Assembly (NCBI GenBank): GCA_964574355.1
Contig: CAZNMD010000001.1
Coordinates: 26,180 to 90,179 of the forward strand
DNA: 64,000 bases
Origin: an uncultured Candidatus Saccharibacteria bacterium
GTDB lineage: Bacteria > Patescibacteriota > Minisyncoccia > Phycocordibacterales > DSPV01
Direction of reading: 5' to 3'
Made by a program: the position numbers and the translations under genes. Positions 38,177 through 47,977 of the stretch are shown in pieces; the stretch's first letter is position 1, and every line of letters starts with the position of its first letter. The notes under the pieces were generated by a model. That model saw only the letters and a list, made by a program, of their open reading frames with translations. It searched no databases and was not told where the DNA came from.

Positions 38177-38243
38177 GTATGGGCATTATCTCAGGTTTTA
38201 AACAAAGCAGTCAACCATATCGCTAAACAAGAGATACGCGTGT

Positions 38244-38249
38244 TATAAT
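38244..38249 (+). promoter_or_regulatory. Extended -10 (TGtTATAAT) only 6 nt upstream of the corA ATG (leaderless candidate)
   Basis: TGTTATAAT at 38241-38249, ATG at 38256. Confidence 0.4.
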
Positions 38250-38255
38250 TTTTTC

Positions 38256-39170
38256 ATGTTACAGCGACGAACACATCGCGACTTAGTTTGGATTGACGTT
38301 GAATCACCAACCACGCACGACATTCGACCACTCGCAGAAGAATATGGCATTCATCCACTCGTAGCAGACGAACTTCTCGGCCCTTCCCTGAAACCAAAAG
38401 TTGATTACCACGGAACACTGATTTATTGTGTTCTCCACTTTCCTGCACTAAAACATAGCCATCGTGAATCAACTGACCAAGAAATCGATTTTGTTATTGG
38501 AAAAAATTTCCTCATTACAGCTCATTATGACACCATCGATCCCCTTCTTAAATTTTCAAAAGTTTTTGAGGTAAATTCAACACTCAATCACGACACCTTA
38601 GGAGAACACGCAGGATACATTTTCTATTATTTAGTTAAAAAATTGTATCGATCTTTACACAATGAACTTGCAATAATCAGCGGTTCACTTTCAAAAATAG
38701 AAAAAGAAACGTTCAGAGGGAGAGAGCGAGATATGGTCATAGAGTTATCTAAAACCGCACGCGACATTTTAACTATGAAACGAGCCTTATCTTTGCACGG
38801 TGATGTTTTAAGCTCTTTGCGCCACGCAGCAAAAAGAATGTTTGGTGAAGAATTTGATTTTTATCTTCGTGATATTGAAGACGAATACACCAAAGTTATT
38901 CATTCATTACGAGACCTCTCGGAATCTTTGCATGAACTTCGAAGTACCAATGACTCACTTTTAACAACCAAACAAAATCAAATTGCCCAAACATTAACCG
39001 TTATGGCGTTCATGGTTTTGCCAACCTCACTTATTGCAACGCTGTTTTCAATGCAAGTTGAATCTATTCCCTTCACTGGTCAACCAAACGGTTTTTGGCT
39101 CGTCTTTGGAATAATTGTCACAGTGATTTTATTTATCTATCTATTCTTTAAGCGCAAAGAGTGGATCTAA
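38256..39170 (+). CDS. corA: CorA-family divalent cation transporter (variant GMN region)
   Basis: Cytoplasmic N-domain and two C-terminal TMs, with CorA-like LVWIDVESPT…PLVADEL. The canonical YGMNF is replaced by FSMQV. Confidence 0.75.
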   Translation: MLQRRTHRDLVWIDVESPTTHDIRPLAEEYGIHPLVADELLGPSLKPKVDYHGTLIYCVLHFPALKHSHRESTDQEIDFVIGKNFLITAHYDTIDPLLKFSKVFEVNSTLNHDTLGEHAGYIFYYLVKKLYRSLHNELAIISGSLSKIEKETFRGRERDMVIELSKTARDILTMKRALSLHGDVLSSLRHAAKRMFGEEFDFYLRDIEDEYTKVIHSLRDLSESLHELRSTNDSLLTTKQNQIAQTLTVMAFMVLPTSLIATLFSMQVESIPFTGQPNGFWLVFGIIVTVILFIYLFFKRKEWI

Positions 39171-41227: not shown

Positions 41228-41318
41228 AAAACAAATCTTTATCCACACGCATCCACATGTTCTGCACCTTTTTTATGCTTCCCGCAAGATAAAGACAGCT
41301 GTTACAATACACCGACAA

Positions 41319-42719
41319 ATGACCAAACGCCCCTCATCAGGTTTACGCCTTCCTCCTCAATCACTTGAAAGTGAACATGCACTCTTGGGCTCCATCATGC
41401 TCCGCCCTGATGCAGCGCTGGATATTATTCCAACTGTTCCACCCGGTTCATTTTATGCGGAAAAAAATCGCCTGATCTATCAAGCAATGATAGAGCTAGC
41501 CGATATGCACTCACCAATCGATCTTGTTTCGATTGCCAACCATCTTAGTGGAAAAGGAATTTTGGAATCAGTTGGGGGGAGAGCATACCTTGCTGATCTT
41601 GCCGGAAGTGTCCCTTCTGCGGCAAATATTGAATACTATGCAGAAATTGTTACTAGTAAATACCTCTTACGAAAACTCATTGAGGCTTCAGAAGGAATTT
41701 CAAAACTTGGCTACAGCGAAGATCGTAACGTCACAGATCTTATAGATGAAGCTCAGCGAACCATTTTTGAAGTAGCGAACGCCTCCACTCACGGAGTTAA
41801 ATTTATCGAACTGAAACACGCACTTGGTGACGCTTGGACACGCCTCGATACACTTCATAAAAACAAAGGTGAACTCCGCGGTATTCCAACAGGATTTAAA
41901 CAAGTTGATAATCTTCTTGCGGGACTCCAACGATCAGATCTCATTATTCTTGCCGCCCGTCCTTCTGTTGGTAAAACTTCTTTTGCCTTGGATATTGCCC
42001 GCCAGACAGCAATTCGTCACCAAAAACACGTCGCTATTTTCTCTCTGGAAATGAGTTCGCAACAACTTGTTGATCGTATGTTGGCAGCCGAGTCTCAAGT
42101 AAACGCATGGAAACTTCGTACCGGAGCATTGAGTACCGAAGATGAGTTTGGTCGCATTCGTGACGCGTTAAATACGCTTTCGACCGCACCCATCTTTATA
42201 AACGACGAAGCAGGAATTACCGCCATGAAGATGCGTTCCATTGCCCGACGCCTCATGGTTGAGAAAAAATTAGATTTGATTGTTGTTGATTACTTGCAGC
42301 TCATGATGCCAATGCACACACGCTCATCAGATTCTCTTGTTCAGCAAGTAACCGAAATCAGTCGTTCATTAAAACATCTTGCCCGCGAATTGGATGTTCC
42401 AGTTTTAGCACTCTCTCAGCTTTCACGTGACGTTGAAAAACGTGGTGGTAAACCTCGGCTTTCAGATTTGCGTGACTCTGGTTCTATTGAACAAGATGCC
42501 GATGTTGTTATGTTTATTCATCGCCCAGACCGTTTCAATGAAGGTTCAAATCGAACAAACATCGCGGAAATCCATGTCGAAAAACACCGCAACGGTCCAA
42601 CCGGACAAGTTGATTTATTTTTCGACGACAAACGTGCAACCTTCCTCGATCTTGAAAAAGACGACTTTGGAGCACTTGCTGCCGGTGTTGATGACGCCTC
42701 TTTGGCTCCTGGTTTTTAA
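41319..42719 (+). CDS. dnaB: Replicative DNA helicase DnaB
   Basis: N-terminal ESEHALLGSIML and Walker A ARPSVGKTSFALDIA, with RecA-like fold motifs. Confidence 0.95.
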   Translation: MTKRPSSGLRLPPQSLESEHALLGSIMLRPDAALDIIPTVPPGSFYAEKNRLIYQAMIELADMHSPIDLVSIANHLSGKGILESVGGRAYLADLAGSVPSAANIEYYAEIVTSKYLLRKLIEASEGISKLGYSEDRNVTDLIDEAQRTIFEVANASTHGVKFIELKHALGDAWTRLDTLHKNKGELRGIPTGFKQVDNLLAGLQRSDLIILAARPSVGKTSFALDIARQTAIRHQKHVAIFSLEMSSQQLVDRMLAAESQVNAWKLRTGALSTEDEFGRIRDALNTLSTAPIFINDEAGITAMKMRSIARRLMVEKKLDLIVVDYLQLMMPMHTRSSDSLVQQVTEISRSLKHLARELDVPVLALSQLSRDVEKRGGKPRLSDLRDSGSIEQDADVVMFIHRPDRFNEGSNRTNIAEIHVEKHRNGPTGQVDLFFDDKRATFLDLEKDDFGALAAGVDDASLAPGF

Positions 42720-45932: not shown

Positions 45933-46089
45933 TCTCTTCCTTTTTTTGTTTTTTTACGAAGAACGTATGATAAAATAATAACAGTTTAATTTAATACTGT
46001 CAATAAATGTCTTCCTGCACAAACATCTTCAACTAGATTTTTATACCTGAAAGCGGTAAGCTCTACCTATCAACTAAACACTACTATCA

Positions 46090-46536
46090 ATGTCACTTCA
46101 AACCGATATAAAAGCAGGAATCAAAGAGGCGATGATGAAAAAAGACGAAGTACGATTGACCGTGCTTCGCTCTATTCAGGCTACAATCACCAACGAAATA
46201 ATCGCGAAAAAAGCAACGGAACTTCTCGATGAAGACGTTCTCACCATCATCCGCCGATCGGTAAAACAACACAAAGACTCAATTGATCAATTTACGAAGG
46301 GTAACCGCATGGATTTGGTTCAGAATGAACAAGCTGAACTAACCGTTCTTGAAGAATTTCTTCCAACAATGATGAGCCGAGAAGAAATCAAAAAAATTGC
46401 TGAAAAGAAAAAAGCAGAACTTGGTATCACAGACAAATCAAAAGCCGGAATGTTGACGGGCGCTCTCATGAAAGACTTGAAAGGTCGTGCAGATGGTAGT
46501 GATGTAAAATCAATTGTTGAAGAACTTTTAGGGTAA
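46090..46536 (+). CDS. GatB/YqeY-domain protein
   Basis: LQTDIKAGIKEAMMKKDEVRLTVLRSIQA… matches the YqeY family. Confidence 0.85.
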   Translation: MSLQTDIKAGIKEAMMKKDEVRLTVLRSIQATITNEIIAKKATELLDEDVLTIIRRSVKQHKDSIDQFTKGNRMDLVQNEQAELTVLEEFLPTMMSREEIKKIAEKKKAELGITDKSKAGMLTGALMKDLKGRADGSDVKSIVEELLG

Positions 46537-46632
46537 AAACCTAAGGACGCCTGCCCCGTAGTGAAGCGAATCCCTGAGCTTCTACTACTGGAGTTAAAAG
46601 CTGTTGTCGAGAAACCGCTCGGATAAGAATAC

Positions 46633-46662
46633 AAAAACCCGCTACGGTAGTAGCGGGTTTTT
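46633..46662. terminator. Bidirectional terminator (CCCGCTAC-ggta-GTAGCGGG flanked by A5/T5)
   Basis: AAAAACCCGCTACGGTAGTAGCGGGTTTTT. Confidence 0.8.
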
Positions 46663-46905
46663 AAAGTCTCAAACGATGGACCTGTCACTATCGCCTTTTC
46701 GGCATTGTCGCCCTCACCGAGGGCTGACGATCATCCGGCTCGAGCATCATGTAACGCTCACGTCGTGCCTCAGGATACCGAGGGACATGCCGATAACGGT
46801 GCTCCTTACCAGAGTGCCTGTTGCCAAGCCCCGCCGATGCTAACCTTGCATTGTTGCTCATAGTAATTAACCGATCCGTATAGAATACTCACAAAAATGA
46901 AGTTT
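46663..46905 (-). ncRNA. Candidate ~250-nt minus-strand transcription unit (GC-rich; encodes at most a 57-aa Arg-rich peptide) – sRNA or small protein
   Basis: It sits between a minus-strand TTGACA-N17-GAGTAT promoter (around 46880-46913) and the 46633-46662 terminator. It starts ATGAGCA like its divergent partner. No ribosomal-protein or known-RNA match was confirmed. Confidence 0.3.
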
Positions 46906-46906
46906 T

Positions 46907-46949
46907 TTGTCAATCCACAAACTTGACAATAGAGATTTCTCTACTATAA
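46907..46949. promoter_or_regulatory. Back-to-back divergent promoters on inverted repeat TTGTCAA-N8-TTGACAA; plus-strand consensus TTGACA-N16-TATAAT
   Basis: Plus -35 at 46922-46927 and -10 at 46944-46949. The minus -35 is the reverse complement of 46908-46913. Confidence 0.6.
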
Positions 46950-46962
46950 TTTAAACCAGATT

Positions 46963-47169
46963 ATGAGCACCCTAAGACGTCGGAAAATCCCGTCGAGGTG
47001 GTGGTTTAGTCGAATGAGACAGGCGGCAGCAGGAACACTTTCTGCTCCAACTCCAAAAACAACTTTGGGAGTTCCCTACTCTCAAATCGAACTCGCAGCA
47101 AAACTGACAGCCAACCCTGATGATGACGTACAACACCGCACCGAAGTATTACGCGGCGAATGGGATTAA
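46963..47169 (+). ncRNA. Candidate ~250-nt plus-strand transcription unit (68-aa Arg-rich ORF with unbiased codons, or sRNA)
   Basis: A consensus promoter lies 13 nt upstream of the ATG, there is no SD, and a terminator follows at 47186-47214. Arg is encoded by six different codons, which argues against a conserved CDS. Confidence 0.3.
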
Positions 47170-47185
47170 ATCCCCCCACAACACA

Positions 47186-47214
47186 AAACAGAGTCGCAAG
47201 ACTCTGTTTTATTT
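47186..47214. terminator. Rho-independent terminator (AACAGAGTC-gcaa-GACTCTGTT + TTTATTTT)
   Basis: Perfect 9-bp stem with a GNRA-like loop. Confidence 0.8.
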
Positions 47215-47217
47215 TAC

Positions 47218-47430
47218 TTACTCATTTGAATTTATAAGTGCATCAATTGCGGCAAGACGCGCAGTTTGATTTTCAATTTCATCCCTTTTTTCAGCAGCTA
47301 ACAACTCACCAAGTGCCTGCACGTCAGACGGAGGAAGCACATCAAGCCGTGCAATAAGGTCACCTTTAAGCTCGTGACTAAAAAGTCCACTCCATCGTAT
47401 TAAAACTGAAAGCGCTTCTTTTTTAGTCAT
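47218..47430 (-). CDS. Hypothetical small protein, translationally coupled to 47423-47977
   Basis: 8-nt ATGACTAA start/stop overlap with the upstream gene. 70 aa, helical, no domain recognised. Confidence 0.5.
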   Translation of the reverse strand: MTKKEALSVLIRWSGLFSHELKGDLIARLDVLPPSDVQALGELLAAEKRDEIENQTARLAAIDALINSNE

Positions 47431-47977
47431 TATTTTTTACTTGGTTTGCTTCAGGTAAAAATACTGAAACGGCTTCATCTATTTCCTCTTGATGGGCCTT
47501 ATATGTTTCATCATCTAATTTCATTGTCTCCCGCAAAGATACAAAGGCATCGTGTATAGCTTGCTTATCACCTTTAAAAAATTGATAGAGCGTTTCGTAC
47601 AAATGAGACGGCATAGCGCCTCCAACAACTTCGGTTGCTTCTGTTGCAAGTGCTCCAGCAAGAGGAACATCTGGTGTTAAAAAATTCAACCGTCTAAACC
47701 AGCGCAACTTTGCCAACGACTTAAACGCATCAGCACTCCAAGAACCAGTCTCTCCAGCGACCGGAACAATATCAAGAAGACTGATCCCCGTATTTGCCAT
47801 CGTACGCAACAAAGCCTTTCCCCCTTTTTGAATTGAAGGATTTCGCAAAAGCATTTCCCACTTTGAATACGTCACCGCATACTCTCCAACAAGTTTCGGA
47901 GGAATTTCTTGCGGACGTTCTAGAGAAGCCTCCCATTCATTTTCATTCGCTATTTCATTTTTTGGTATAGATTCCAT
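47423..47977 (-). CDS. Hypothetical protein (first gene of a two-gene operon)
   Basis: 184 aa, no domain recognised. GC-elevated. Confidence 0.55.
   Translation of the reverse strand: MESIPKNEIANENEWEASLERPQEIPPKLVGEYAVTYSKWEMLLRNPSIQKGGKALLRTMANTGISLLDIVPVAGETGSWSADAFKSLAKLRWFRRLNFLTPDVPLAGALATEATEVVGGAMPSHLYETLYQFFKGDKQAIHDAFVSLRETMKLDDETYKAHQEEIDEAVSVFLPEANQVKNND

Follow-up and report, generated by a model that had tools for sequence, protein, structure and literature searches.

Two divergent small units in the window (the whole 64,000-nucleotide stretch of DNA that was analysed) very probably constitute two independent monocistronic genes for small basic proteins, read outward from back-to-back sigma-70-type promoters. 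Transcription would run outward from the two promoters, each gene being read to its own intrinsic terminator, and would start about 7 nt after each -10 element. The rightward gene would be strongly expressed; since its predicted start lies about 7 nt after the -10 and its ATG 12 nt after it, the mRNA leader would be only about 4-6 nt, and translation would be SD-independent and nearly leaderless. The features of the locus, with promoters, start sites and terminators called by consensus match only, were as follows.

46632-46663, no strand assigned: GC-rich hairpin with A-run and T-run, predicted intrinsic terminator of the leftward gene and of the convergent yqeY (terminator scan).
46688-46861, minus strand: putative leftward gene, stop codon included, for a 57-aa Arg/His-rich protein, MSNNARLASAGLGNRHSGKEHRYRHVPRYPEARRERYMMLEPDDRQPSVRATMPKRR (ORF list).
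46862-46884, minus strand: leftward -10-to-ATG interval of 23 nt, with a conserved GGAT motif inside.
46885-46890, minus strand: predicted leftward -10, GAGTAT (3/6; A2 and T6 kept, 17-nt spacer).
46908-46913, minus strand: predicted leftward -35, TTGACA as read on the minus strand (6/6 in all five genomes with the leftward gene).
46907-46929, no strand assigned: inverted repeat TTGTCAA-N9-TTGACAA, most simply two back-to-back -35 elements.
46923-46950, plus strand: predicted rightward sigma-70-type promoter (consensus match 12/12).
46963-47169, plus strand: putative rightward gene for a 68-aa protein, MSTLRRRKIPSRWWFSRMRQAAAGTLSAPTPKTTLGVPYSQIELAAKLTANPDDDVQHRTEVLRGEWD (ORF list).
47185-47217, plus strand: predicted intrinsic terminator of the rightward gene, with an 11-bp stem, a 4-nt loop and a T-run (terminator scan).

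The rightward promoter, TTGACA-N16-TATAAT, is the sole perfect match to the consensus on either strand of the 64-kb window. An earlier note on this DNA had described it rightly, with coordinates one base off, and had also reported the inverted repeat, whose 7 bp are indeed perfect (TTGTCAA at 46907-46913 and TTGACAA at 46923-46929) but whose gap measures 9 nt instead of the 8 nt given. The repeat occurs once in the window (chance expectation 0.04 with one mismatch allowed) and is made up of two -35 hexamers and one flanking A, 15 bp centre to centre. Sigma-70 hexamers 16-18 nt apart were found on both sides, with 12/12 agreement on the right and, on the left, a -35 of 6/6 and a spacer of 17 nt. 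The rightward ATG lies 12 nt past its -10, close to the 13 nt or so claimed for both units, whereas the leftward ATG lies 23 nt from the weak GAGTAT; the leftward 5' UTR would be about 16 nt, counted from a predicted, unmapped transcription start. Both ORFs begin with ATGAGCA and encode basic products of the lengths listed, and both units, about 250 nt each, end at GC-rich hairpins with a T-run on the transcribed strand (predicted intrinsic terminators at 46632-46663 and at 47185-47210 plus the T-run after it), much as the note had it. With an A-run at one flank and a T-run at the opposite one, the former hairpin looks bidirectional. The units had also been called GC-rich, which holds for the left one (54-61%, against 30-45% in the flanks) and less so for the right one (about 50%); a high GC content would fit the Arg/Pro/Ala/Gly-rich make-up of both proteins.

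Two further traits that had been pointed out are real but ordinary. The units have no SD sequence, like 13 of the 17 genes checked in the window, and the rightward ORF uses six types of Arg codon, which had been taken as a sign of non-coding or very young coding sequence and which the long genes of this genome share, all six being in use there. Genes without SD or with a very short leader are normal in this genome, so these traits are poor evidence for non-coding sequence, and the start regions point to leaderless or very short-leader mRNAs as the usual kind. A -10-like hexamer was seen a few bases 5' of the ATG in several genes (for example CorA, 38230-38258; DnaB, 41293-41321; YqeY, 46064-46092). 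The literature on leaderless mRNAs in Patescibacteria was searched and nothing bearing on these genes was found.

The neighbours are housekeeping genes (CorA, CysS, DnaB, RecR, RmuC, a membrane protein and YqeY), and yqeY (46090-46536) is convergent with the left unit; past the right unit lie unknown 70-aa and 184-aa genes, tRNA-Glu and a MurF-like ligase gene. The 70-aa and 184-aa genes (47218-47430 and 47423-47977, both on the minus strand) overlap, are convergent with the rightward small gene and are conserved in genomes L002 and L046. They gave no Pfam, NCBIfam or PADLOC match, and since a look-up of their exact sequences, taken from the first start codon, found nothing among the public proteins, the starts annotated for them may lie elsewhere. 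A mobile or foreign origin of the locus was rejected, there being no match in phage or plasmid collections, no second copy in the window and housekeeping genes on its flanks.

Relatives of YqeY placed the window among the Patescibacteria/Paceibacterota (labels Paceibacterota, Taylorbacteria, Parcubacteria and 'Saccharibacteria' MAGs). No relative above 78% identity was found by searching species-representative genomes and JGI metagenomes with YqeY, and these first searches, with relatives of up to 78% only, at first suggested that the left unit was unique. A larger protein collection, queried with YqeY, led to closer relatives; the contigs behind its best matches were retrieved, namely L045, L046, L047 and L048 (YqeY 95%, 92%, 81% and 80% identical, respectively). 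The order yqeY, terminator, left ORF, inverted -35 pair, right ORF and terminator recurs in all four, the right ORF of L045 being cut off by the contig end; the divergent monocistronic units that had been proposed are thus a layout conserved in four related genomes. A hairpin equivalent to 46632-46663 is present in L045-L048, and GC-rich hairpins with T-runs were read by eye at the unit ends of the orthologues. In L047 and L048 the hairpin between yqeY and the left gene has its T-run on the leftward-gene strand only, which would make it a dedicated terminator of the leftward gene; yqeY has no obvious terminator of its own there (L047 3680-3735, L048 3545-3585), and its transcription may continue antisense to the small gene.

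Two side features were seen next to the left unit. The stretch of about 95 nt from the yqeY stop codon to the terminator (46537-46631) contains a conserved hairpin formed by 46554-46567 and 46578-46593; the same element occurs in L046 (1810-1905), L047 (3553-3690) and L048 (3448-3545) and is missing in L045 and L002. Over the four loci its consensus fold comprises 12 pairs, compensatory changes being seen in 2, and no Rfam match was obtained. An unused second copy of the last eight or so yqeY codons and the stop lies at 46600-46626 (AVVEKPLG and stop, against the real IVEELLG and stop), and yqeY of L045 ends at a sequence equal to the 'second copy' of L046; the element looks like a small insertion with its own gene end. 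A 20-nt direct repeat (46613-46632 and 46869-46888, 75% identical) exactly brackets the terminator and the leftward gene. It was judged a chance occurrence, about 3 such pairs being expected in 781 nt by our own estimate, and it is not found in the relatives.

The orthologous rightward promoters of L045-L048, L002, L012, L013 and the second unit of L006 agree with the consensus at 10-12 of 12 positions, and the rightward ATG lies 11-12 nt past the -10 in the five two-gene genomes. The leftward -10s of the relatives have the form nAnnAT (AAGAAT, GAGAAT, TAAAAT; 4-5/6) behind a 17-nt spacer; that of L048, GAAAAT, was read by eye, the promoter script having chosen a different promoter there. The leftward 5' UTRs (46862-46884 and its orthologues) have a GGAT...(G/A)AAT(T/C)C motif in common, palindromic in L047 and L048 (GGATT-N4-AATCC / GGAT-N6-ATCC), which may form a small hairpin or serve as a binding site.

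The inverted repeat is conserved in L045-L048 with a gap of 7-9 nt, and would most simply be two back-to-back -35 elements, since the left half-site is found only with the leftward gene: genomes without that gene also lack the half-site and keep the rightward promoter. That the palindrome serves in addition as the operator of a dimeric regulator, maybe one of the two proteins, in a cI/cro-like switch or co-repression, does not exclude two protein genes and is compatible with them, but it is unlikely. The 7-bp repeat is perfect and unique in the window, yet the two -35 hexamers explain it fully; repeat and spacing are conserved in five genomes, with a half-site spacer whose sequence is not conserved in L047 and L048 and whose length runs from 7 to 9 nt. 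Between the window and L045 no segment is better conserved than the promoter region (96%), and both products are basic, the right one having three short helices predicted at low confidence; however, no DNA-binding domain was detected in either protein and no regulator gene lies nearby. The small regulatory switch proposed earlier found no support, and two ordinary protein genes take its place.

Within the reading as two independent genes, the rightward unit is judged to be a protein-coding gene under purifying selection from the sharing of motifs, shuffle z-scores, third-position substitutions and the members found by profile search. Homologues lie downstream of yqeY in L002, L006, L012, L013, L044 and L046-L048, P0125 being a further member, and ten members of the family retain an open frame. 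The family motifs are an N-terminal [WL]F..MR.A, a central GVP.SQ[IV].LA.KL and an acidic Trp-containing C-terminus (RG[DE]WD or WEEEND). L002, the closest species-representative genome (YqeY 78% identical), has in order yqeY, a terminator, TTGACA-N17-CATAAT, a 69-aa ORF sharing 'WWF..MR.AA' with the window protein, and homologues of the 70-aa and 184-aa genes. L012 and L013 each have a 61-aa ORF right after yqeY, with a near-consensus promoter and a terminator; the N-terminal motif is present in both ORFs, and the 'RGDWD' ending also in that of L012. The homologue of L006 and L044 has GTG as assigned start, 72 aa and an 'RGDWD' end, P0003 being the same ORF called with an upstream start at 74 aa.

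The window protein scored z = 6-7 against L002, the second unit of L006 (L006_2) and L012, and none of 500 shuffles reached the score. The homologues of L006 and L044 differ by 19 substitutions, distributed 2/0/17 over the codon positions (dN/dS 0.047), and pN was 0.23 and pS 0.52 between the right ORFs of the window and L046. When 1.84 billion representative proteins were searched exhaustively with the family profile, six matches came back, three of them spurious (long repetitive proteins); the true members were P0003, P0002 (the window's own protein, N-terminally truncated) and P0125 only, the last with all three motifs (HWWFNQMRKA, GVPVSQIALAAKLTADP and ERGDWD, respectively). Word-indexed searches of proteins, in which the 68-aa protein and the family alignment served as queries, returned almost nothing but self matches. 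The public protein collection contains the rightward protein, with an NCBI source, and its frame has the best codon score of its six. Two tandem small units, each with its own promoter, follow yqeY in the Taylorbacteria-type genome L006 (4507-4746 and 4822-5040) and in L044; the first (79 aa, P0004) has only a C-terminal EVLRGDSD in common with the family, and L006 and L044 differ by 4 substitutions in it against 19 in the second.

The left unit is ambiguous on the evidence of the single genome. In the window its ORF lacks codon periodicity (GC 0.60/0.52/0.59 at the three codon positions), its frame is not the top-scoring one, and antisense ORFs of comparable length are present. No source for this genome in the public protein collection lists the 57-aa protein, and the identical contig L001 has no gene call at the ORF; both small ORFs were called by the gene caller in L046. 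The unit is GC-rich (54-61%) within an AT-rich genome and folds, with its terminator, better than every shuffle (z = -4.2). Apart from the gene calls in L046, these points would suit a non-coding sRNA, alone or paired with the rightward unit, whose ORF is incidental to the GC-rich sequence. That explanation, put forward earlier in the form of an sRNA pair, is nevertheless quite improbable, as the fold and the comparison between genomes both go against it.

Without its terminator the left unit reaches only z = -1.76, and 11 of 200 shuffles fold equally well (the right unit, likewise trimmed, gave z = -1.16). RNAalifold on the left units of the window, L045 and L046 gave a weak consensus of -14.5 kcal/mol over 236 columns with a penalising covariation term (+1.78). 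The covariance-model check recommended in the earlier note was run on both units and gave no relevant match: at the Rfam gathering score the whole window yielded tRNA-Glu only, with nothing at the locus; at E <= 10 the region 46500-47300 yielded terminator-driven chance matches, the best being rnk_pseudo (30.6 bits; gathering score 55); and the loci of L045-L048 and L002 yielded nothing. SRP or 6S RNA, considered for the left unit on its GC content and a 'CAGG...GGUAAGGAGCA' seen by eye, was rejected, there being no covariance-model match and no conservation of the fold.

A minus-strand ORF of 56-61 aa occupies the same place in L045-L048, with the yqeY terminator on one side and the inverted -35 pair on the other, and thus keeps its length and position in five genomes at about 50% nucleotide identity. 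The five form two groups (window, L045 and L046; L047 and L048), between which no significant similarity was found by Smith-Waterman comparison of the left proteins. Conservation within the groups is confined to the ORF frame: six-frame Smith-Waterman comparison gave 93-134 (z = 12-19) for that frame among the window, L045 and L046 and 82 (z = 11.7) between L047 and L048, the remaining frames reaching at most 76. The first group has the core REHRxRHVPxxPxxRRxRF in common, held across CGA-to-AGA and CGT-to-AGG swaps, and the second the motif LDN[RK]P..I.RS...RR.RRG.P....R.ALMG. For the within-group pairs pN (0.25-0.42) is below pS (0.69-0.90), and dN/dS is 0.155 between L045 and L046, synonymous sites being near saturation in most pairs (pS 0.57-0.9) and most dN/dS values therefore imprecise. 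The comparison of ORFs in relatives that had been recommended accordingly found protein-level conservation with mainly synonymous variation, which counters the idea of non-coding or very young coding sequence and, with the lack of a conserved fold, that of an sRNA pair.

The leftward unit is concluded to be, by all appearances, a fast-evolving protein gene, its pN being well above that of yqeY in the same genome pairs (0.04-0.10). The unit is absent from L002, L006, L012 and L013, and blastn found no copy in 43 loci; by these comparisons the left protein is shown as confined to the closest relatives. A degenerate inverted paralogue of the right gene was considered for the left ORF and rejected, as the HMM had no match in any frame, pairwise z did not exceed 2.5 and the hhalign probability was 0.2%. 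A type-I-like toxin-antitoxin or other addiction or defence module, to which two small divergent units with strong promoters might point and of which toxin-like peptides had been suggested, is extremely improbable, given two highly charged, Arg-rich peptides with no hydrophobic or transmembrane stretch, transcripts about 80 bp apart with promoter DNA between them that neither overlap nor show complementarity by blastn, no PADLOC or PHROG match, a housekeeping context (DnaB, RecR, RmuC, YqeY, MurF-like) and several genomes with the right gene but not the left.

For the two small proteins so identified, neither family gave a match in Pfam, NCBIfam, PHROGs, PADLOC or PDB sequences; the best PDB profile matches (E = 0.05 and 2.8) were both to unrelated proteins, and Pfam at E <= 10 gave zero matches, bS21 included, for nine members of the rightward and five of the leftward family. 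The AlphaFold2 models had low confidence and were too poor for fold searches: that of the right protein (pLDDT 59, pTM 0.23) shows three short helices, and that of the left (pLDDT 63, pTM 0.14) is for the most part unstructured. Both proteins are small and basic and probably largely disordered or helical. Judged only by charge, size, strength of the expression signals and linkage to yqeY, they may bind nucleic acid (RNA, the ribosome or DNA), as their composition suggests. It is a doubtful further step to regard them as lineage-specific nucleic-acid-binding factors of Paceibacterota, either with a bS21-like role on ribosome or RNA beside yqeY or as a pair regulating itself through the palindrome; if this were true, the leftward, fast-evolving one would count as recently added and clade-specific.

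The locus is thus real but ordinary: two previously undescribed and uncharacterised small-protein families of this lineage, of which the rightward one is shown by gene order to be linked to yqeY in several Paceibacterota genera and the leftward one appears narrower. A candidate sRNA pair or switch becomes two small protein genes, and a false lead is removed. The gain is modest, namely an annotation correction and two candidate small-protein families for the biology of CPR (Patescibacteria); the yqeY-linked rightward family carries the strongest promoter of the 64-kb window, and small proteins of this type are systematically under-annotated, the 57-aa gene being missing from the public protein collection.

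Several known systems resemble the locus in part. Arginine-rich-motif RNA-binding peptides, such as N of phage lambda, have an N-terminal Arg run, Trp or other aromatic residues and an Ala-rich helix. RRRKIPSRWWFSRMRQAAAG has such an N-terminal Arg run, aromatics and Ala-rich helix, a likeness of composition only, whereas homology, a phage context and a nut/boxB-like target were not detected. Loci for sRNAs or type-I toxin-antitoxin systems are likewise compact and intergenic, with units of about 250 nt that have a promoter and a terminator of their own; they differ from the present one in that here conservation is frame-specific and at the protein level, with no conserved fold, antisense overlap or hydrophobic peptide.

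In Bacillus and other Firmicutes rpsU, the gene for the small basic ribosomal protein bS21, shares an operon with yqeY. The small proteins are like bS21 in size (57-70 aa), in a basic, Arg-rich N-terminal part, in strong expression signals and in lying beside yqeY; they differ in that neither family has sequence similarity to it (Pfam, E <= 10), that the rightward gene follows yqeY under its own promoter instead of preceding it in an operon, and that the right protein has an acidic, Trp-containing C-terminus.

As in leaderless or short-leader, SD-independent mRNAs, the rightward genes have no SD sequence, nor do most genes of the window, and the rightward ATG lies 7-12 nt past the -10 in 7 of the 10 promoters examined (window, L045, L046, L047, L048, L012 and unit 2 of L006). 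Unlike a truly leaderless mRNA, the rightward one would probably have a leader of 4-6 nt from its predicted start and not of zero, and the leader of L002 is longer and contains GAGG. The closest likeness in arrangement is to the back-to-back divergent sigma-70 pairs of bacteria, with which the locus shares outward promoters, -35 elements side by side, spacers of 16-17 nt and predicted transcription starts about 80 bp apart; it differs in that its -35s with the flanking A form a perfect 7-bp palindrome, and is otherwise in no way unusual.
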